Positions 28,106-63,340 of a stretch of DNA of 64,000 nt are shown in pieces (the first letter of the stretch is position 1; each line of letters begins with the position of its first letter). The notes under the pieces are model-generated. The model was given only the letters and a program-made list of their open reading frames with translations. It searched no databases and was not told the origin of the DNA. The stretch comes from Eubacteriales bacterium (GTDB lineage Bacteria > Bacillota > Clostridia > Oscillospirales > CAG-382), in the NCBI GenBank assembly GCA_045651785.1, contig JAZRTE010000086.1, positions 352-64,351 on the forward strand, written 5' to 3'. A program made the position numbers and the translations under genes.

Positions 28106-28318
28106 CTATTTCATCAAGCTTGTTCTCTTGGTCGCTTCCTTTTTCTCGGTGCCGTCAGCACCCTGTTTTTTACGAGTCTTCCATTCCGCATAGTCTCGTT
28201 TTCCTTCTTCGGATGCAAGATACTCCCGCATAATTGGCAGCAGTATCCGTGCCAAAGATTCCATTTCATATTCGGGGATACCTAAATCATTGCGAGGAAT
28301 TTTCTTCTTTCTCGGCAT
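28106..28318 (-). CDS. Small basic hypothetical protein downstream of the integrase
   Basis: Start moved to MPRKKKIPRNDLGIPEYEMESLARIL... (70 aa). It sits 29 nt after the integrase stop. No family assigned. Confidence 0.5.
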   Translation of the reverse strand: MPRKKKIPRNDLGIPEYEMESLARILLPIMREYLASEEGKRDYAEWKTRKKQGADGTEKKEATKRTSLMK

Positions 28319-28347
28319 GATATAGTATCCTTTCTTTTTAGTTGTGA

Positions 28348-29310
28348 TCACTCTTCATAAATCTTCGTAATTCCGGAGCGATGATGACCGAGTCGCTCTG
28401 AGACCTCTCGTCTTGCCTGTTCCTCATTCATACCACGGGCAATAAGTCTTTCTTCCGTCTTTTGCGCGTAAGTGTGCCGTATTGCATGCCAACCGTAACC
28501 GCTGTCTGCTCGCTCTTTCTTGCCCTCTTTAATCTGAGCCTTTCGATCGGGATCCAAAATTTCATCAATATGATTGCTCATCCAATTGGTCAAAGCGGTT
28601 TTCACTTTCTTTACGCTGTTCTTGTGATTATCGCAGAACAAATAATTGCTTGACTTTTTCCCGTCCGCCTTGGCAATATTTAAAATCTTTTGCAGCATTA
28701 TGACTTGCTCTTCCGTATCAAGCGGAATATCTCTTGCCTGACCGCCTTTTCCGTTGGGTATGTGTAACTGCTTTGACTCAAGAGCTTCTTCCAATTGATA
28801 GATTCTTAATGTGGCAAGCTCATTTTTTCGCAGACCAAAATGGTAAACTACATATACTCCTAACACTACGTCACGTCTGTCTCCGCTTTTTGCGACATCT
28901 ACCATTTTTGTCAGTTCACTGTCAAGGAATCCCTTGTTGTACTTGCCTACCTCTCTCTTCTCCAAATCAAGCTTCTTGTTCTCCGGCAGCTTGTTCTTAC
29001 ACTTTGAATGCTTATGCCAAAATCGAATAGCGGACAGTTCGGTCATAATATACGATGCGCTTTTCCCATTTGCTTGAAGAAAATCAACGTAGGCAAAAAT
29101 ATGCTTGGCAGAAACATTCTTGACATTCTCAAGACGAAATTCAACTGCCAGGAATTTTGCGAAGCGTTCTTCGAGCGCAGAGTGATAACGTCTTCTTGTT
29201 TCAATCGATCCATTGTTGCAGTTATCAATATCACGCTTGAACTGAACGGCAAGGTTGTTCGCTATGTTCGATTGTGTCTCGGTCAATTCGTACTTAATCT
29301 GAACGCCCAT
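28348..29310 (-). CDS. int: Tyrosine-type site-specific recombinase (phage integrase family)
   Basis: Has the C-terminal catalytic signature (GWHAIRHTYA, H-x-x-R, and LGHHRSGITKIY with the Tyr nucleophile) plus an N-terminal SAM-like core-binding domain. I chose the ATG at 29310 (MGVQIKY) because GAAAGGAGGTGAAAGG lies upstream; the longer track ORF has no SD. Confidence 0.9.
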   Translation of the reverse strand: MGVQIKYELTETQSNIANNLAVQFKRDIDNCNNGSIETRRRYHSALEERFAKFLAVEFRLENVKNVSAKHIFAYVDFLQANGKSASYIMTELSAIRFWHKHSKCKNKLPENKKLDLEKREVGKYNKGFLDSELTKMVDVAKSGDRRDVVLGVYVVYHFGLRKNELATLRIYQLEEALESKQLHIPNGKGGQARDIPLDTEEQVIMLQKILNIAKADGKKSSNYLFCDNHKNSVKKVKTALTNWMSNHIDEILDPDRKAQIKEGKKERADSGYGWHAIRHTYAQKTEERLIARGMNEEQARREVSERLGHHRSGITKIYEE

Positions 29311-29340
29311 AGGCCTTTCACCTCCTTTCTGTAAATCTTT

Positions 29341-29386
29341 CAAACGAAAATTCCAATATTTTCGTTTGTACTGTAGTAATGCATTA
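29341..29386 (-). promoter_or_regulatory. Palindromes in the integrase 5' leader (possible operator or RNA hairpin)
   Basis: A perfect 11-bp inverted repeat CAAACGAAAAT-tccaat-ATTTTCGTTTG spans 29341..29368, and a 12-bp palindrome GTAATGCATTAC spans 29375..29386. They lie 30-75 nt upstream of the int start. Confidence 0.35.
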
Positions 29387-36289: not shown

Positions 36290-36757
36290 ATGGGACTGAT
36301 TGAATGTACAAGCGGCGCTTCTCTTTGGCGCGGCTATGATTATTACAAAGATAATAAAGTTAAGAATTTGATTGAAACATCTCCGGGGTTATTCACTGCC
36401 GATGTTGAAGGCAATTCTGATGAGCCTTACATTGTAGAGATCGATATTGCGCACCCTCGAAAATCCAAATGCAACTGTCCTCATGCAGACGGAAAACGTA
36501 TCGTGTGTAAGCATATGATGGCGGTATATTTCACTGCCTTTCCGGAAGAAGCTCAACGAATCTATAATGAAGCAATGGCTTATCAGGACCAAGCTGACAA
36601 GCGCGCCGAAGAGCTCTATGAAAAGGTCCGTCAATGTGTTTGGAAAATGAAGAAAAGCGAAGCTCAGCAAGCTTTACTTGAAGTGCTCTTCGATGGACCG
36701 GAATGGCAATTTGATAGATTTGTAAGAGAACACGATTTGGAGGATGACTATTATTAA
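36290..36757 (+). CDS. SWIM zinc-finger protein
   Basis: CNCPHADGKRIVCKHMMAVY fits the C-x-C-xn-C-x-H SWIM signature. 155 aa, AGAGG SD. Confidence 0.75.
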   Translation: MGLIECTSGASLWRGYDYYKDNKVKNLIETSPGLFTADVEGNSDEPYIVEIDIAHPRKSKCNCPHADGKRIVCKHMMAVYFTAFPEEAQRIYNEAMAYQDQADKRAEELYEKVRQCVWKMKKSEAQQALLEVLFDGPEWQFDRFVREHDLEDDYY

Positions 36758-36778
36758 AATACAGAAGGGAGAAAATAC

Positions 36779-38365
36779 ATGAAAGCCGTAATTTACGCTC
36801 GATATTCATCGGACAATCAGCGTGAAGAAAGTATAGACGGGCAACTTCGTGAATGTATGGAATTTGCCCAATACAACGAAATGACCGTTGTTAATACATA
36901 TATTGATCGCGCTTTGTCCGCAAAAACAGATAATCGTCCTGAGTTTCAGCGAATGATAAAGGATAGCTACAAATGCAACTTTGATGTGGTGATCGTATGG
37001 AAGTTAGACCGTTTTGCACGTAACCGCTATGACTCGGCACACTATAAGGCACTTCTAAAAAAGAACCGTGTGCGTGTAGTATCTGCCAAAGAAACCATTT
37101 CTGAGGGCGCAGAGGGCATCCTGTTGGAATCTTTGCTTGAAGGTTATGCAGAGTACTATTCCGTAGAACTTGCTGAAAAAGTTAAACGAGGGCTTACAGA
37201 GAACGCACTGAAAGGCGTTTGGAACGGCGGTACGGTTCCTTTTGGTTATGTCGTCAACAAACAAACTCACAAGTTGGAGATCGATCCACTTGCAGCAGAT
37301 GTTGTTCGTGAAATCTTTGATATGGCTTACGACGGCAAAACAGTCAAAGAGATTCACCGTTATTTAGAAGAAAAGAATATTACGCGTTCTAATGGCAAAC
37401 CGCTTCGCTATAATGCAGTGCGCTATATTCTCTCCAATCGCACGTACATAGGCGAATACAATCATTCGGGTGTATTGATTGAAGATGGTGTTCCCGCAAT
37501 CATTGAAAAGGATCGTTTTGAAAGGGTTCAAAGTGAATTAAAAAAGAACTCCAAAGCACCTGCACGTCATACCGCAGACGATGATTATCTTCTCACAACC
37601 AAATTGTTCTGCGGCAAATGCGGAGCAATGATGGTGGCACAGGCCGGTACAAGTCATACGGGAAAAGTACACCGCTATTATGCTTGTGTCCGTCAGAAAA
37701 AGCACAAGTGCAACAAGAAGATGATGCACAAGGAAAAACTTGAAAATTTCATCGTATATAAGACGATGGAGATTTTGAAAAATGATTCTGTGATTGAAGA
37801 ACTCTCGGCTCTACTTTACAATCTACAGTACAACGAAAGCACGGTTCTTCCCCAATTGGAACAGCAGTTGAAAGAACGCGAGAAAGAGATCGAAAACATT
37901 GTAAATGTTATTCAGCAAGGAATTGCATCTCAAGCGTTGGTAAAACGTCTTGGTGAACTTGAAGCATCAAAGAACGAAATCAGCGACGCCATTATCAAAG
38001 AGCAAATTCAGTCACCGACCTACACGCAGGACGAATACAGAATGGCTCTTACAAACTATCGAAAGATCGACATTACTCAGCAAGACGGTAAAAGAAAAAT
38101 CATCGACACATTCATCAATGCCATTTATGTGTACGATGACCATTTCAAAATCGTATATAACGGTAACAACAAAGAGGAGACAGTTAGTCTTGAAGCACTC
38201 GAAAACAGTTCAACCTTGTTTTCATCCGGTGCACCAGAAAAAACGACAAGTTTCGACTTGTCGTTTTTTCAGTTATATTCGCCTTGCGGCGAGTTATATT
38301 GCTTCACAGTTATAATTTGCTATTGCCGAGTGGTATTGCCTTCGGCGGTTAAAAGGCGAATATAA
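36779..38365 (+). CDS. Large serine recombinase (resolvase/invertase N-domain, recombinase domain, zinc ribbon, coiled-coil)
   Basis: Has the catalytic serine motif AVIYARYSSDNQ, VVIVWKLDRFARN, and the zinc ribbon CGKCGAMM...YYAC. The last ~45 codons run through a terminator-like hairpin into Cys-rich, repeat-laden sequence, so the true C-terminus may be earlier. Confidence 0.9.
   Translation: MKAVIYARYSSDNQREESIDGQLRECMEFAQYNEMTVVNTYIDRALSAKTDNRPEFQRMIKDSYKCNFDVVIVWKLDRFARNRYDSAHYKALLKKNRVRVVSAKETISEGAEGILLESLLEGYAEYYSVELAEKVKRGLTENALKGVWNGGTVPFGYVVNKQTHKLEIDPLAADVVREIFDMAYDGKTVKEIHRYLEEKNITRSNGKPLRYNAVRYILSNRTYIGEYNHSGVLIEDGVPAIIEKDRFERVQSELKKNSKAPARHTADDDYLLTTKLFCGKCGAMMVAQAGTSHTGKVHRYYACVRQKKHKCNKKMMHKEKLENFIVYKTMEILKNDSVIEELSALLYNLQYNESTVLPQLEQQLKEREKEIENIVNVIQQGIASQALVKRLGELEASKNEISDAIIKEQIQSPTYTQDEYRMALTNYRKIDITQQDGKRKIIDTFINAIYVYDDHFKIVYNGNNKEETVSLEALENSSTLFSSGAPEKTTSFDLSFFQLYSPCGELYCFTVIICYCRVVLPSAVKRRI
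38238..38269. terminator. Perfect 14-bp hairpin with UUCG loop inside the 3' end of the serine recombinase ORF
   Basis: AAAAAACGACAAGT-ttcg-ACTTGTCGTTTTTT. A/T tracts on both sides give a bidirectional terminator shape. Confidence 0.6.
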
Positions 38366-38444
38366 TACCGCAGCGAAACGAAGTGGAGCAATATCACTAC
38401 GAGCAAAGCAAGTAATATCACCCCGCCGAAAACGGAATATCACT
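38271..38444. repeat. Symmetric 3+3 array of a 9-mer (AGTTATATT x3 direct, then AGTGATATT x3 inverted)
   Basis: AGTTATATT occurs at 38271 and 38292, and AGTTATAAT at 38308. On the plus strand, AATATCACT occurs at 38390, AATATCACC at 38414 and AATATCACT at 38436; these are the reverse complement AGTGATATT. TATTGCC x2 and a TATATTCGCC / GGCGAATATA inverted pair lie between the two triplets. Confidence 0.55.
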
Positions 38445-38641
38445 AAAAATATAACACAAACGCCTTGAGATCGGGACACTGTTGTCTACTCATGATTTAA
38501 AAACTTTCGTTATTTTTTATCAAAATCATCTACTTAACGCAAGGAATGATGCACCAAAGTCCGTTTTATTGTACACTATACGTTGTATAATACTATCAAA
38601 GCTTATAAAAGCGTTTATTGCGAAGAAACGAGGTGACTACG

Positions 38642-39982
38642 ATGAGTAATACCATAAGCAATGCAATCAGCAAACTTTCAAAAATTACCGAAAAGACACC
38701 TATTGATTGGGATGCTTTCGATTCCGTTCTGAAGCAATTAGAGGACATTAATGTCTATGATGACAAGTACGAAGAAACTATCCTGTCACAATTTTTAATG
38801 GATGGAGATTTCTATAAACGCGGCTTTGTCCTGTCAGATATAGTCCGTCATTTCCTTGCTTGCGGTTATGATGTTTCTGCAAACAACGGCTTAAACGGTG
38901 GTCTGGCACTTCATTCGCTTTGTTGGTCTTCGTATGATCATTACATTTTGGATGCTGCGAAAGTTCTAATGAATGCCGGAGCACCCGTTAAATACAAAAC
39001 CGATGACGACGATCCCGACGAAGAACCCATGGGTCTTCTTAGAAGCATCAGATGTAAGCTTTCAGGCGCATGGATGGTGGATAACGACTATGCTTGGGCG
39101 AATACGCTGCAAGCCTATTATGCTATGACAGAAGCCAATATTGCGGGAAAGGATTACAATTCAATCGATAATTATGTCACTTGTATTGGAAAACCACTTA
39201 CTGCTGTTTCGGCCATTAGGAATGGAGATACACTCACTTTGCAGAATGAGGGAGTTTTCTCGGTCTACTCAGAACCGATTGTTATGTATTTTGAAGACAC
39301 GCCTTTGGTTATTAGCATTTATTCGGACTTTATCGTAAATCCCGTGTATGCCGACGATAAGAAAAATGAGCTTTGCGATGTTACCGGTGTATTTTCCTCT
39401 GTCATTGGTGCAACGCTAAAAGAAGTACAATACATAGGCACAACGATTTGCTGTTTTGAATTTGACAATGGACAAAGACTGTTTTTTGCCGGCCGTGACA
39501 GCGGCAACAAAAAACGGGTCGGGATTTTTGAAATTCGTGCCAAAGACAACGCCGTTGATATCGAACGCCTCAAAATCGAAAGCATTTGCGGTATAAACGG
39601 AACTATATTTGCAAGTACCGTTACAGACTATGAAGAGGATGCGATCGCCATTTTCTGTGACGATGCAGCATATATTCTGTACACTTGTCCCGGAAGCAGC
39701 GATAAATACAAGTTTGGAATCTGCTCCTGCTCCAAAGAGTTGGTCAATGAATATGCGCGTCAATACACACTAAAGAACCACTCGCGGATTTCCTGTGTTT
39801 ACAAGCAAGACAATCTTCAAGCTATCCGTATCGATTACCCTGAAGGACACTTCTATATAGTCGCTACCGAAAACAGCAACATTGGAATTCGACTTAGCGA
39901 TAAACTGTATGACCCTTTAGATATCTACGCTTTTCTAAGTACGAAAGGAAAGCATATTGAGTTCCAAAAGCGAAAGATCTGA
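38642..39982 (+). CDS. Hypothetical protein with an ankyrin-like N-terminal segment
   Basis: Start moved to MSNTISNAI... (GAGGTG SD). GLNGGLALHSLCWSSYDHYILDAAKVLMNAGAPV resembles an ankyrin repeat. The rest is beta-rich and unassigned. Confidence 0.65.
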   Translation: MSNTISNAISKLSKITEKTPIDWDAFDSVLKQLEDINVYDDKYEETILSQFLMDGDFYKRGFVLSDIVRHFLACGYDVSANNGLNGGLALHSLCWSSYDHYILDAAKVLMNAGAPVKYKTDDDDPDEEPMGLLRSIRCKLSGAWMVDNDYAWANTLQAYYAMTEANIAGKDYNSIDNYVTCIGKPLTAVSAIRNGDTLTLQNEGVFSVYSEPIVMYFEDTPLVISIYSDFIVNPVYADDKKNELCDVTGVFSSVIGATLKEVQYIGTTICCFEFDNGQRLFFAGRDSGNKKRVGIFEIRAKDNAVDIERLKIESICGINGTIFASTVTDYEEDAIAIFCDDAAYILYTCPGSSDKYKFGICSCSKELVNEYARQYTLKNHSRISCVYKQDNLQAIRIDYPEGHFYIVATENSNIGIRLSDKLYDPLDIYAFLSTKGKHIEFQKRKI

Positions 39983-40014
39983 ACGTATATATGATGAAAG
40001 TCGGCAAATAAACA

Positions 40015-59668: not shown

Positions 59669-60017
59669 GCGACCGTACCGAACAATCGCGCGGTGCCATG
59701 GCGAAAGCCCGTACCGTGAGGAAAGTCCGAGCTCCACAGAGCAGGATAACAGATAACATCTGCCGAAGGCGACTTTAGGGCCAGTGCAACAGAAATAAAC
59801 CGCCAAGATTTCTTGGTAAGGATGGAAAGGCGAGGTAAGAGCTCACCGGTGTGTCGGAGACGGCACAGCCATGTAAACCCTATCCGGAGCAACACCGTGG
59901 CGGGGGCATATGCTTGCTCGGCAGCCCCTATGGAGGTGGCATGGAGATTTACGGCAACGTAAATCCAAGATAGATGATTGTTCACGACAGAACTCGGCTT
60001 ATAGGTACGTTTGTCGC
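59669..60017 (+). ncRNA. rnpB: RNase P RNA (bacterial)
   Basis: Universal elements GAGGAAAGTCCGAGCTCC (P4 5' strand) and ACAGAACTCGGCTTA (P4 3' strand) are present. The P1 helix pairs GCGACCGTACC with GGTACGTTTGTCGC. TTGACA-17-TACAAT lies at 59634..59662 and a terminator at 60030. Ends are accurate to about 5 nt. Confidence 0.9.
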
Positions 60018-60029
60018 TCTTTTAAAAGA

Positions 60030-60055
60030 AAAAGCACCCTTTTCAGGGTGCTTTT
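60030..60055. terminator. Bidirectional terminator (rnpB / serpin gene)
   Basis: AAAAGCACCCT-tttc-AGGGTGCTTTT. Confidence 0.8.
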
Positions 60056-60057
60056 GT

Positions 60058-61407
60058 TTATATTTCGGGGTTCATCATAGTGCCGATAAAAAAGGGTGTG
60101 TTCGTATCGAGATCGATGAGCATATAAACGAAAGGACGGTCGAGATAAATATGGATGTCGTCAGGCCCGTTGACGGTAATGCCAAGCGTAGGAAGCGCCG
60201 TTGCAGCGCCCGCTTTCGTACCTCTTTCGTTGACCTCGATAAAGGTTCTGTGGATAACGTTATCGATATAGATATTGACGTCGTACGATCCCATCAAGCC
60301 GAAATCGGCCTTTTCGGGCGAGAAGGCGTTGGGCATTCCCATTTCGGACAGAGTGTCCGCCATATACATTTTATACTCTGATTTGAATTTGGGGATTCTT
60401 GTGAAAACCTTTCCCTTTTTTTCGTTTGAGAGCATATTGCTTATTTTTTCACCGGTAAGCGTATCGAGAAAATCCGACATACTTATTCCCTCGTCGGGTA
60501 GTATTGCGGCAAAAGCATATTTCCTTCCGACGTAATTCTTGATAAAGCCGATACAATTATCCGATTCGAAATATTTATTTTGCTCGTCATACATAAATTC
60601 CACGGTTTTTTCAGTGCCGTTTTCGAGAGTAAATACGTTTTCGAAAACCTCGTCGTTCTCGTATATTTTTTCCCAATCGGCTTGGAATGCAAGCGTGTTA
60701 ACAAGCACCATTAACGAATCGTCATCAAGATGATCAAGAATTTGCGGTATCATTCCGTCGGTTTCGCGCTCGACCCATTCGTTTATCTCTTTGAGCGTGC
60801 CCGAATCGAACTCCGATTGATAAAGCTGTGCGCCGTAATAATCTGCATTGATTTGAAGGAAATCACGGTTGGGGACAAATACCTCGCTATCCCTGTACCA
60901 AATCGAATTTGCGATCTTTAATTTGTATTTATTCTTTACGGGTAACGAATTGATATAACTGTAAATATAATCGTTCAGCTCATCGGCAGTCATACCTAAA
61001 ACCGATTCCATCTGGGCACGCGTTTCTCCGTCGGCACCGTTAAGCGTCATCGAAAGCGCGCACATAACGGACAAGGGCGAAACGAGAGAGCTTTTGCCGT
61101 CGGTTTGGCTTGCTTTAAAAAGGCGTATCGCAAAATCGGTCACTCTTTCGTTATATTCATCGATAACGATAGGTTCAACTTGATTCGGCGTGATCCCCTC
61201 CATAAGATCCTGCGCGTGTACAGTGTTGAATAGAGGCACTGTGAAAAACAACGACGTAAAGATTATACAAAAGCAAGCAGCCAATGCAATATATCGCGTC
61301 AGCTTACGGCGCTTCGGTTGCGATTTAGAGTTACGTGCTTTATTAACTTCGTCAATAATCGAATCATCGAGGAATTCAAATGCATTGCTGAGTTCTTCCT
61401 TTTTCAT
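60058..61407 (-). CDS. Membrane-anchored serpin with an anti-sigma-like N-terminal segment
   Basis: The first ~35 aa are cytoplasmic (MKKEELSNAFEFLDDSIIDEV...) and are followed by a TM helix (YIALAACFCIIFTSLFF). The extracytoplasmic serpin core shows NTLAFQADW, the hinge EVNERGTKAGAATA, and the LDRPFVYMLID motif. Confidence 0.85.
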   Translation of the reverse strand: MKKEELSNAFEFLDDSIIDEVNKARNSKSQPKRRKLTRYIALAACFCIIFTSLFFTVPLFNTVHAQDLMEGITPNQVEPIVIDEYNERVTDFAIRLFKASQTDGKSSLVSPLSVMCALSMTLNGADGETRAQMESVLGMTADELNDYIYSYINSLPVKNKYKLKIANSIWYRDSEVFVPNRDFLQINADYYGAQLYQSEFDSGTLKEINEWVERETDGMIPQILDHLDDDSLMVLVNTLAFQADWEKIYENDEVFENVFTLENGTEKTVEFMYDEQNKYFESDNCIGFIKNYVGRKYAFAAILPDEGISMSDFLDTLTGEKISNMLSNEKKGKVFTRIPKFKSEYKMYMADTLSEMGMPNAFSPEKADFGLMGSYDVNIYIDNVIHRTFIEVNERGTKAGAATALPTLGITVNGPDDIHIYLDRPFVYMLIDLDTNTPFFIGTMMNPEI

Positions 61408-61964
61408 ACGTCAAACCCTTCCTTTCTTAAGTGCTCCTTTAACGCCTTGCGAGAACGGAACAGCATATTTTTTACTTTTGATTCGCTTATACCGAATGAT
61501 TGCGAAATATCTTTTATCGAATCGAAAAAATAATACCTCGCAATAAAAACATTTCGGTTTGCGGTCGACAAAGATTTTACAAACGCGTTGATCGAGCCCG
61601 AGAGTAGCTTTGCTTCGTAATTCGATTCGGGAGTTGAGTTGTCTGTAATAATTTGGTTTAACTCGTCGATAGAAACCAAATATTCGGACGGGATACGCTT
61701 TTGACGATGATTGGCACGAAGCTTGTCGATAGAAATTCGTCTGATAAGCTTTACAAGATAGGTCGACAAAATTTCAGGCTCGTTCGGCGGAATTGAACCC
61801 CAGACGGCAAGATACGTATCGTTTACGGATTCTTTCGCGTCTTCCTCGTTTGCCAAAATGTTAAAGGCGATCTTCATCAGATATTTGCCGTATTTCTCGG
61901 TCGTTTCGGAAATGGCAGTTTCATCTCGATTAAGATAAAGCTCGACTATTTGCTTATCCTGCAC
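61404..61964 (-). CDS. ECF-type sigma-70 family RNA polymerase sigma factor
   Basis: 186 aa with region 2 (DAKESVNDTYLAVW) and a region 4 HTH (IKDISQSFGISESKVKNMLFRSRKAL). GTG start with AAGGAG upstream. The stop overlaps the serpin start (ATGA). Confidence 0.85.
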   Translation of the reverse strand: MQDKQIVELYLNRDETAISETTEKYGKYLMKIAFNILANEEDAKESVNDTYLAVWGSIPPNEPEILSTYLVKLIRRISIDKLRANHRQKRIPSEYLVSIDELNQIITDNSTPESNYEAKLLSGSINAFVKSLSTANRNVFIARYYFFDSIKDISQSFGISESKVKNMLFRSRKALKEHLRKEGFDV

Positions 61965-62230
61965 TCATATTCACTCCTTTTTTTACTTGTTGGGCACCCT
62001 TACTGTAATTACTCGATAAATCCGCTTAAAGGTTTCACTTTTTTTGAAAATTTTCAAAATATTTGGTAATAATTAATATTGAGTTTTCTTTTTTATTAAT
62101 AATAAAGTAAAAGTACGGAAAATGCAACAATGCCTTGCACATTTTCGCTTTATTTCGTTAAAACTTCTTGACATAATACGAGTTTGTGTATATAATAAAA
62201 GTGAATAGAACTATTTAAGGAGAACGCTCC

Positions 62231-63340
62231 GTGATTTTACAATTGGAACAGGCAAAGCTTTCGCTCGGCGAGCTTAGCGAAGGTATTAACGATCTTGGCG
62301 ATTCTATTGGCTATGAATCGTTGAAAAAAGAAGTTGAAGAGCTTGAAAACAAAACCGCTGAAGCAGGTTTTTGGGACAAGCCGCAGGAATCTCAGGTCGT
62401 TTTAAAGCAATTAAAATTCAAAAAAGGTACGCTCGAACGCTATCTTGCGTTAAGACGCAGTTTTGACGATATTGAAACGCTTATCGAGCTTTCTATTGAA
62501 GAGGATGACGACAGCGTTGTCGAAGACGTTTTGAGCGATCTTGAAGCGGTACGCAAGGAATACGAAAGACAGAAGATCGAAATTCTTCTTTCGGGCGAAT
62601 ATGACGGCAGTAATGCCATTATTTCGATTCACCCCGGCGCTGGCGGTACCGAAGCGCAGGATTGGGCGCAAATGCTTTACCGAATGTATTCGCAATATGC
62701 CGCAAAGCGCGGTTTTAAGCTAAAGGTGCTTGATTACCTTGACGGTGACGAAGCAGGTATTAAAAGCGTTTCTTTTATGGTCGAGGGCGAAAATGCTTAC
62801 GGCTATTTGAAGAGCGAATCGGGCGTACACAGATTGGTTCGCGTTTCCCCGTTTGACTCGAGCGGAAGAAGACATACTTCATTCGCTTCTGTCGAGGTTC
62901 TTCCCGAATTCAATGACGAAATCACCATTGAAATCAACGAAGCCGATTTGAAGATCGATGCTCACCGTGCAAGCGGTGCGGGCGGACAGCACGTTAACAA
63001 GACCGACTCGGCAATTCGTATTACACATATTCCCACCGGTATCGTTGTCGGTTGTCAGACCGAACGCAGTCAGGTTCAAAACCGCGAAACCGCAATGAAG
63101 ATGCTCAAGAGTAAGCTTTTGGAAATCAAGGAACGCGAGCACTTAGAGCGTGTTGAGGATATAACCGGCACTAAGATGAACATCGAATGGGGCAGCCAGA
63201 TCCGTTCTTACGTATTTATGCCTTACACTCTTGTCAAGGATAACCGTACCAACTGCGAAACCGGTAACATACAAGCGGTTATGGATGGCGAGCTTGACGA
63301 TTTTATCAACGAATATCTTAAGCTGAACTGCAACAAATAG
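62231..63340 (+). CDS. prfB: Peptide chain release factor 2, single uninterrupted frame
   Basis: Has the SPF tripeptide (VRVSPFDS) and the GGQ motif (ASGAGGQHVNKT). GTG start after AAGGAG. The N-terminal ~30 aa are in frame with the rest. Confidence 0.9.
   Translation: MILQLEQAKLSLGELSEGINDLGDSIGYESLKKEVEELENKTAEAGFWDKPQESQVVLKQLKFKKGTLERYLALRRSFDDIETLIELSIEEDDDSVVEDVLSDLEAVRKEYERQKIEILLSGEYDGSNAIISIHPGAGGTEAQDWAQMLYRMYSQYAAKRGFKLKVLDYLDGDEAGIKSVSFMVEGENAYGYLKSESGVHRLVRVSPFDSSGRRHTSFASVEVLPEFNDEITIEINEADLKIDAHRASGAGGQHVNKTDSAIRITHIPTGIVVGCQTERSQVQNRETAMKMLKSKLLEIKEREHLERVEDITGTKMNIEWGSQIRSYVFMPYTLVKDNRTNCETGNIQAVMDGELDDFINEYLKLNCNK

Follow-up and report, generated by a model that had tools for sequence, protein, structure and literature searches.

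The locus described here lies in a 64-kb stretch of DNA (64,000 nucleotides, referred to below as the window) from a Eubacteriales bacterium of the GTDB group CAG-382 (contig JAZRTE010000086.1 of assembly GCA_045651785.1). On the minus strand, the window carries a two-gene operon that encodes a sigma factor of the extracytoplasmic function (ECF) type and, directly downstream, a 449-amino-acid protein in which a short N-terminal segment and a single transmembrane (TM) helix are joined to a serpin. Sequence comparison leads us to conclude with high confidence that this chimera is a single-pass protein, built from the head and TM helix of a family of sigma factor partner proteins, a clamp of the type found in the serpin tengpin, and an inhibitory-type serpin that would be displayed on the cell surface. 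The two genes and their junction are located as follows:

61404..61964, minus strand: gene for an ECF (group 4) sigma factor of 186 amino acids (aa), with a GTG start and with Pfam and TIGR02937 matches
61404..61407, minus strand: ATGA overlap between the sigma stop and the serpin gene start, read from the sequence; predicted translational coupling
60058..61407, minus strand: fused anti-sigma-like/serpin gene, an open reading frame (ORF) of 449 aa, with 21 clusters of fused homologues of 445-457 aa

The sigma factor gene and its coupling to the serpin gene

The 186-aa product of the upstream gene contains Pfam domains Sigma70_r2 (aa 23-87) and Sigma70_r4_2 (aa 128-175), with no region 3, and scores 76.7 bits (E=1.5e-21) against TIGR02937 (sigma70-ECF), for which the cut-off is 42.9; having regions 2 and 4 only and a size within the range of ~180-200 aa, it belongs to the ECF (group 4) sigma factors. 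The protein reached no equivalog-level NCBIfam cut-off and is, by NCBIfam, not a SigV orthologue; the solved structures nearest to it (SigW, SigE and CnrH) are all distant. Its orthologues, with 47-75% identity, share the N-terminal start MQDxxIVELY. The initial annotation of this DNA had proposed that an ECF sigma gene is coupled to a serpin ORF, with the stop of the one and the start of the other overlapping in ATGA; the Pfam and TIGR02937 matches confirm the former claim and the letters at 61404..61407 the latter.

Architecture of the chimeric protein

Five parts can be distinguished in the product of the downstream gene:

61294..61407, minus strand: cytoplasmic head (aa 1-38), with two short helices (3-10 and 15-25) and a basic cluster; presumed sigma-binding module
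61225..61293, minus strand: single TM helix (aa ~39-61), the hydrophobic stretch after KRRKLTR; helix 32-54 in the AlphaFold2 model
61171..61221, minus strand: juxtamembrane segment, V63-H64-A65 (A-x-A-like) followed by the clamp Q66-DLMEGITPNQVE-P79
60067..61143, minus strand: extracytoplasmic serpin domain (aa 89-447), from Pfam Serpin, the tengpin alignment and Foldseek
60175..60228, minus strand: reactive-centre loop, running from the hinge (P17-P8, E394..T403) as far as P1-P1', predicted at I410-T411

The protein begins with MKKEELSNAFEFLDDSIIDEVNKARNSKSQPKRRKLTRY, which is followed by a 22-residue hydrophobic stretch (about aa 39-61); the basic cluster KRRKLTR lies directly before this stretch, and the positive-inside rule thus predicts an N-in, C-out orientation. 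Where the initial annotation had described a cytoplasmic segment of ~35 aa and one TM helix, the single helix stands and the length of the segment is corrected to ~38 aa. Residues A9, D14, V21 and R25 of the head are conserved in the fused homologues. Near the cytoplasmic end of the TM helix is a motif, A43-A44-C45 (61273..61281), of which all three residues, together with C47, are invariant in the 21 fused homologues; in the broader family of partners described below, conservation of the AA pair is 90% or more. This motif was also considered as a lipobox, a reading that was rejected given that ~5 hydrophobic residues precede the Cys and ~16 follow it, which places it inside the TM helix.

The serpin domain is matched by Pfam Serpin PF00079 over aa 89-447 (289 bits, E=7.6e-86), and its closest solved relative is tengpin (2PEE, E=8e-110; also 2PEF and 2VH4), with about 45-50% identity; tengpin chains are also the best Foldseek matches, with TM-scores of 0.87-0.92 (normalised to target). 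The protein contains both the inhibitory-type hinge EVNERGTKAGAAT and the DRPF motif. The hinge, E394-R-G-T-K-A-G-A-A-T403, matches the inhibitory pattern (E, G, T/S and small residues at P12-P9), and seven of its positions (E394, G396, T397, A399, G400, A401 and T403) are invariant across the 21 fused homologues, so that the full serpin with inhibitory-type hinge and DRPF motif described in the initial annotation was recovered. By contrast with the invariant hinge positions, the distal part of the reactive-centre loop is variable among these homologues, and it is disordered in the AlphaFold2 model (pLDDT, the predicted local confidence score, <50 for 408-421). We presume that P1-P1' is I410-T411, a placement made by spacing only, from that of alpha1-antitrypsin. 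The hinge and the relation to tengpin predict an inhibitory-type serpin with inhibitory activity. Tengpin itself inhibits leucocyte elastase (PMC1905895).

The segment between the TM helix and the serpin body can be aligned with the N-terminus of tengpin. The alignment begins at aa 64 and pairs HAQDLMEGITPNQVE (aa 64-78) with tengpin QAANLMDRIKANPVS (37-51); L68 is conserved in at least 90% of the 21 fused homologues and M69 in all of them, and the segment starts ~5 residues past the TM helix. This alignment identifies it as a tengpin-type N-terminal clamp, and docking of the clamp on the serpin body is predicted. In tengpin, a hydrophobic patch receives L41/M42 of peptide 39-51, and this docking keeps the protein in its metastable native state; tengpin deprived of the clamp peptide goes latent, with strand s1A then filling the place of the clamp (PMC1905895); the clamp surface of tengpin is also the site where vitronectin regulates PAI-1 (PMC8233489). 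Immediately before the clamp, V63-H64-A65 is a candidate signal peptidase I site with hypothetical cleavage at A65; all 21 fused homologues have this alanine, and their residue at -3 is V, A or I.

An AlphaFold2 model of the 449-aa protein, built on 21 homologues, has a mean pLDDT of 78.6. It contains helices 3-10, 15-25 and 32-54 (the two head helices at a low pLDDT of 53-63), a linker (54-68) modelled with low confidence and a serpin body modelled with high confidence; this body is loop-inserted-like and nearest to latent or polymer tengpin. The model therefore cannot judge clamp docking, and it was set aside as a guide to either docking or the native state.

Three further observations concern related serpins. 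The tengpin clamp (DLMEG...PN), which published work has treated as a means by which a thermophile's protein gains thermostability, is kept in most of the recovered serpins from mesophilic gut and rumen Clostridia, in fused and lipoprotein forms; it would thus seem to be general to the serpin clade. Some lipoprotein serpins are longer (539-579 aa) and have a C-terminal extension of ~150 aa (L055 4734..6431, L076 4671..6290, L050 4058..5764 and L062 3896..5635). One homologue of 757 aa (P0016) opens directly with serpin sequence and may contain two domains.

The head and TM helix as a partner module of an ECF subfamily

A profile was made of the N-termini of 52 distinct non-serpin partners, proteins encoded next to related sigma factors, with all serpins left out; it matched aa 1-61 of the window protein with 49.7 bits and no other of the 222 window ORFs. 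The initial annotation had placed the serpin ORF in the position of an anti-sigma factor, and this homology, the variety of ectodomains on the same module and the conserved synteny reported below now bear that placement out. A metagenome scan with the sigma alignment yielded 80 loci with sigma factors 49-59% identical to that of the window; in each of the 76 testable loci, a closely adjoining gene lies downstream of the sigma gene, with a 4-bp overlap in 59 of the 76. Nearly all of these partners start with M-x5-DAL-x2-L-(D/P)-x-D-L-I-x-E-x3-R, followed by a basic stretch and a TM helix with A-A-C, and they diverge completely beyond the TM helix, with total lengths of 213-455 aa; the window protein fits the same layout in the form M-x(5-6)-DAL-x2-(L/I)-D-D-x2-I-x-E-x(3)-R, basic stretch and TM helix with A-A-C. 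An exhaustive single-sequence search with aa 1-85 against 1.84 billion representatives found 21 proteins of 73-536 aa, all matched at their N-termini. The ectodomains of the partners mostly have no Pfam match, the exceptions being DUF4179 with a weak DUF5643, Big_14, an NfeD-like domain and the serpin. Since the partners carry many different ectodomains, the serpin would be a swapped-in ectodomain on the partner module.

One of the partners (L087) passes the DUF4179 model at 33.8 bits, and the combination of DUF4179 and DUF5643 is the domain pair of RsiV. DUF4179 is a hallmark of Firmicutes anti-sigma factors and is found in RsiV and its relatives (PMC7826278, PMC6066255). The window protein itself matches DUF4179 weakly and over aa 32-64 only (17 bits, E=0.008, cut-off 30.1), and, with E values of up to 5 allowed, no zf-HC2, RskA or other anti-sigma domain matched it. 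Anti-sigma domains of class I or of the zinc type are four-helix domains of ~80 aa, often with HxxxCxxC, and the head, of ~38 aa and with no His/Cys motif, does not belong to this type. Short two-helix anti-sigma factors do exist, however, CnrY being an example. The window protein has the layout of a membrane anti-sigma factor, being encoded directly downstream of sigma with the ATGA overlap, having one TM helix after a basic cluster and showing conserved synteny. Position and homology thus support assignment of the head and TM helix as an anti-sigma factor, and from these we infer that the head binds sigma.

It could be argued instead that the N-terminal module is a membrane-targeting or co-factor module with no anti-sigma function and that sigma is controlled by transcription only; the match of no curated anti-sigma family and the very short cytoplasmic part speak for such a module. 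We nevertheless consider this very improbable, as an adjoining partner gene is present in 76 of 76 testable loci, nearly all of these partners have the module, one of them together with a DUF4179 ectodomain, and the cytoplasmic part is of a size for which factors of the CnrY type, mentioned above, are a precedent. A sigma gene followed by an adjoining partner gene is, moreover, the arrangement by which pairs of ECF sigma and anti-sigma factors are typically recognised (PMC7826278).

This short partner module, widespread in a Clostridial ECF subfamily and absent from Pfam and NCBIfam, is newly defined here, as is the promoter motif that accompanies it. The same sigma subfamily also includes a pair very common in human gut samples, with a partner of 213-217 aa (MTSEKLHDALSLLPADLVAETDALR...) and a Cys-containing ectodomain without Pfam match; metagenome contigs with this pair include L083, L091, L093, L095-L097, L099, L100, L102 and L105-L107.

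An ECF-type promoter motif upstream of the sigma gene

Three elements frame the two genes:

62008..62038, minus strand: putative autoregulatory promoter of ECF type, with -35 TGAAACC (62037..62031), a T-rich spacer and -10 CGAGTAAT (62015..62008)
61974..61979, minus strand: Shine-Dalgarno sequence AAGGAG of the sigma gene, 9 nt upstream of the GTG
60030..60055, minus strand: intrinsic terminator hairpin that closes the two-gene operon, with an 11-bp stem and a T-run on both strands

The promoter site has the form TGAAACC-N16-CGAGTAAT, with an AAC-containing -35 and a CG-containing -10 element. Against a weight matrix of the 48 corresponding sites that precede related sigma genes, from which the window site was excluded, this site scores 20.0 bits and is the top position in the 64-kb window; the random background of the matrix contains true promoters, and of its values only the median, at -9.6, and the 95th percentile, at 2.1, are usable. 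The next-best match (49337, minus strand, 14.7 bits) was rejected, as it lies within a plus-strand ORF and the closest start of a minus-strand gene is ~600 nt away. The corresponding motif, nTGnAACC-N16-CGAGnTAT, is found upstream of the sigma gene in most of ~98 loci examined, and in the window and most related loci it is located 40-60 nt upstream of the sigma start. We take the motif to be a promoter from its likeness to the AAC/CG character of the Bacillus SigW, SigX and SigM consensus. The presence of a conserved ECF-type motif before the sigma gene implies positive autoregulation, with the motif presumably used by the encoded sigma factor.

Some stand-alone genes for lipoprotein serpins also carry the ECF-type motif (23.2 bits in L038, 19.5 in L012 and 14.6 in L045), which suggests that these serpins may be regulated in trans by the sigma subfamily of the window. 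The regions that hold the motif are ~2400-2660 in L038, ~2400-2680 in L012 and ~3700-4000 in L045, and no sigma gene is present within 4 kb of these serpin genes.

Conservation of the operon and its relation to unfused forms

Among the 120 best homologues of the window serpin, fused head-plus-TM forms make up 21 clusters, and in most of the others (412-430 aa) the same V-x-A-x-DLMEG segment comes after the signal peptide of a lipoprotein. A scan of species-representative genomes gave 79 loci, all from metagenome-assembled genomes of gut or rumen Clostridia; 73 of the 74 non-fused serpins in these genome loci have a lipobox or a lipobox-like G-C motif. An orthologous sigma gene with the 4-bp overlap is present in 12 of 12 related fused loci that have enough upstream sequence (L001-L006, L008, L010, L033, L109, L161 and L162, among which the serpin of L002, though counted, is cut by a contig end), with serpin identities of 46-98%. 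Because the overlapping pair recurs in 12 loci, the pairing of sigma gene and fused serpin gene is real and conserved, and it represents neither a chance juxtaposition nor an assembly artefact. The genome survey for sigma-serpin synteny that had been proposed with the initial annotation thus finds this synteny well beyond the genome of the window, in at least three clades.

At least 13 loci have an unfused, three-gene layout in which sigma gene, partner gene and lipoprotein serpin gene follow one another; nine are genome loci (L013, L034, L052, L053, L055, L063, L075, L076 and L079) and four are metagenome loci (L085, L098, L104 and L128). The unfused partners (183-326 aa) have a similar head and TM helix and then a tail that is acidic and of low complexity, to which a small beta-rich domain is usually added; in the eight loci measured, the serpin gene starts 5-20 bp past the partner gene. 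With a separate lipoprotein serpin gene downstream of sigma and partner in these relatives, the serpin is therefore primarily, and in many genomes, a co-transcribed output of the sigma circuit, and the window holds a case in which output and regulator are fused in one polypeptide.

The partners of ten unfused loci (L013, L052, L055, L063, L075, L076, L079, L085, L098 and L128) share an ectodomain in which an extended acidic stretch of low complexity is combined with a C-terminal domain that is small and beta-rich, with motifs such as VLVRIDAW-EDGF-G-V and FPVGSIVRV-F. This ectodomain has no significant match in Pfam, the only match being a weak one to DUF3221 (E=0.085); it is possibly a protease bait.

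Fused loci fall into at least three clades of the neighbour-joining tree of the serpin domain and likewise of that of the sigma factor, and between these clades lie both serpin-linked systems without the fusion and systems with other ectodomains, a pattern that fits recurrent fusion or domain swapping. The junction is the expected product of a deletion that extends from just past the TM helix of a partner to just past the lipobox of a serpin.

These comparisons also give rise to the main rival to a protease-sensing role, which holds that the serpin is an output only and its fusion merely an anchor. According to this explanation, an ancestral partner gene was joined by deletion to the lipoprotein serpin gene downstream of it, which exchanged a lipid anchor for the TM helix of the partner, and the head and TM helix hold a sigma factor that is released by a cue unrelated to the state of the serpin, such as general envelope stress or turnover. 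The three-gene operons, in which the serpin is a co-transcribed output, fit such an origin, as do the ECF-type motifs before the stand-alone serpin genes of L038, L012 and L045; the junction, too, agrees with a simple deletion, the TM helix and V-x-A being followed by DLMEG, the sequence found after the lipobox of the lipoproteins. The fusion would, however, also have removed the ancestral ectodomain, so that sensing must have passed to another part of the chimera if sigma is not to be locked off or on, and fused forms persist over serpin identities of 46-98% and in at least three clades of both trees, which argues that the fusion is maintained by selection. On balance, we regard an anchor without sensory function as possible, if somewhat unlikely.

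In full-text searches of the literature, no publication was found in which serpins are linked to anti-sigma factors or to ECF operons, and NCBI names these proteins only "serpin family protein". What appears to be new is the serpin as ectodomain on a head and TM helix of anti-sigma type; the tengpin-like serpin, the ordinary ECF sigma factor and the logic of one head with interchangeable ectodomains were already known.

A proposed mechanism of sigma release

We propose that the operon is an autoregulated ECF system in which the head holds sigma at the membrane until the chimera undergoes proteolysis triggered by the fate of its serpin ectodomain, a proposition to which we give an even chance. 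In the uninduced state, the head would keep sigma inactive at the membrane. A target protease would then attack the reactive-centre loop or clip the short juxtamembrane linker; the ensuing stressed-to-relaxed change of the serpin would dislodge the clamp beside the membrane, and the A-x-A site or the linker would become exposed to signal peptidase or another site-1 activity. A site-2 protease could next cut the TM helix, perhaps at the conserved A-A|C, which would leave an end (...YIALAA) that we take to resemble an SsrA-like degron. The freed sigma factor would re-induce the operon and so replace both inhibitor and anti-sigma factor, such that the circuit would gauge the consumption of its own inhibitor.

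Individual steps have precedents in other anti-sigma factors. RsiV undergoes a ligand-gated cut by signal peptidase right past the TM helix, after residue 66, at a site that is shielded by the structure of the following residues until lysozyme binds (PMC6066255). V63-H64-A65 of the chimera, placed directly past the TM helix, resembles this site. Since clamp docking depends on the conformational state of the serpin, and since the clamp follows the A-x-A site, a conformation-gated site-1 cut can be proposed for the chimera. RseP cleaves RseA between Ala108 and Cys109 (PMC10024687), and by this likeness A43-A44-C45 may be regarded as a lead to the site-2 cut. In the most specific form of the proposal, the chimera would be a suicide-substrate receptor, in which insertion of the loop moves the clamp and exposes A-x-A, and each irreversible serpin change releases one sigma factor, so that the bacterium would count the inhibitor molecules it has consumed and replace them; serpin metastability would then serve, for the first time in bacteria, as a transmembrane signalling switch. 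We put this form forward tentatively and think it rather unlikely. Protease sensing as such, which the initial annotation had suggested, is plausible and can be stated more precisely with the clamp beside the TM helix, the A-x-A motif and the A-A-C motif; our estimate of it ranges from an even chance down to a rather low one, depending on how specific a claim is made.

Several points weigh against this proposal. A serpin-protease complex enlarges the ectodomain, and it is not obvious that it would pass the size filter of a site-2 protease without a site-1 cut. No anti-sigma model of Pfam or NCBIfam matches the head, which comprises only ~38 aa, and binding of sigma by the head is a part of the anti-sigma assignment that we infer. 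Lipoprotein serpins, which have no part as anti-sigma factors, often show the combination of V-x-A and clamp too, and its conservation alone is therefore no sign of a cleavage site. The AlphaFold2 model, loop-inserted-like and of low confidence over aa 1-68, is uninformative on clamp docking, and the neighbour-joining trees carry no support values.

That every one of the 21 fused homologues has A65, together with V, A or I at -3, would also be expected if the head and TM helix were a long cleavable signal sequence. Signal peptidase I would then cut constitutively after V-H-A65 and free a soluble serpin, and degradation of the remaining stub would free one sigma factor per exported serpin, coupling expression to export and not to protease sensing; RsiV and RsiP, for which signal peptidase serves as the site-1 protease that cuts an ECF anti-sigma factor, provide a precedent. 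On an autoregulated promoter, however, constitutive cleavage would result in runaway positive feedback; furthermore, a structured and conserved n-region of 38 aa is atypical of signal peptides, and V-x-A is common past the lipobox of lipoprotein serpins as well, where a signal peptidase I cut is not expected. We consider constitutive cleavage improbable and favor release of sigma through the fate of the serpin ectodomain.

Genomic surroundings of the operon

The terminator hairpin at 60030..60055 is bidirectional and common to the serpin operon and a convergent rnpB gene; the latter, a full-length RNase P RNA of class A (RF00010, 262 bits), lies at 59670..60017 on the plus strand. On the other side of the operon, a divergently transcribed gene (62231..63340, plus strand) encodes a peptide chain release factor 2-like protein; its ORF appears to run through the usual prfB frameshift position in a single frame, and its start sequence recurs in the upstream flanks of the fused loci L003, L005, L008 and L010. 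A motif search found no site-2 protease gene within the 64-kb window. At ~28300..40000, the window contains mobile-element-like ORFs, such as that for a serine-recombinase-like protein (36779..38365); this stretch is flanked by housekeeping genes and may be an integrated element.

Significance and comparison with known systems

Pairs of ECF sigma and anti-sigma factors are a major bacterial signalling system for which the signal is mostly undescribed, and the ectodomain found here has a known biochemistry; its closeness to the elastase-inhibiting tengpin points to a concrete candidate signal, namely serine proteases of the host, the diet or other microbes. If the proposal is true, it would define a new route of protease sensing through consumption of a tethered inhibitor, would link the metastability of serpins to transmembrane signalling, and would account for the regulation of surface serpins, a protein class studied in the context of inflammatory bowel disease, in abundant gut and rumen Clostridia.

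Tengpin of Thermoanaerobacter tengcongensis (2PEE, 2PEF, 2VH4) shares with the window serpin the inhibitory hinge and the N-terminal clamp, QDLMEGITPNQVE in the window and ANLMDRIKANPVS in tengpin, with L-M over a hydrophobic patch (PMC1905895). The L-M of tengpin is at 41-42, however, which leaves room for a signal peptide only, whereas that of the window protein, at 68-69, lies past a head and TM helix; tengpin also comes from a thermophile and the window protein from mesophilic gut Clostridia, and, unlike the window serpin, tengpin has no described link to a sigma factor.

The pair of RsiV and sigma-V in Bacillus subtilis and Clostridioides difficile is likewise an ECF pair from Firmicutes in which the anti-sigma factor is single-pass. 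The ectodomain of RsiV binds a host defence protein, lysozyme, while that of the window protein is a serpin. Where the site-1 cut of RsiV is gated by the residues after the site (PMC6066255), the window protein has the A65 A-x-A followed by a segment predicted to be conformation-dependent. The RseA/DegS/RseP system of Escherichia coli sigma-E represents regulated intramembrane proteolysis of a single-pass anti-sigma factor; RseA is cut at Ala108/Cys109, near the cytoplasmic end of its TM helix (PMC10024687), and the window family has A-A-C at the equivalent place. RseA has no sequence homology to the chimera, its site-1 event and sensor differ, and the likeness is taken from the literature.

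The RsgI/SigI systems of cellulolytic clostridia consist, like the window family, of paralogous pairs with a conserved N-terminal anti-sigma module and interchangeable extracellular sensors. However, the sigma factor there is SigI-like and is not classed with the ECFs (PMC7826278), and RsgI differs in its N-terminal module, the window protein having no RsgI_N match, and in its sensors, which bind polysaccharides and are not protease inhibitors. As regards regulated expression of a bacterial serpin, the closest functional analogue is the serpin operon of Bifidobacterium breve, in which a gut bacterial serpin is served by dedicated signal transduction through SerRK. This operon is reported to be protease-inducible. 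It is also reported to be autoregulated (Alvarez-Martin 2012, as cited in PMC8201313). SerRK is a histidine kinase with a response regulator, and the serpin is outside the sensor protein; in the window, by contrast, the regulator is an ECF sigma factor and the serpin is part of its partner.

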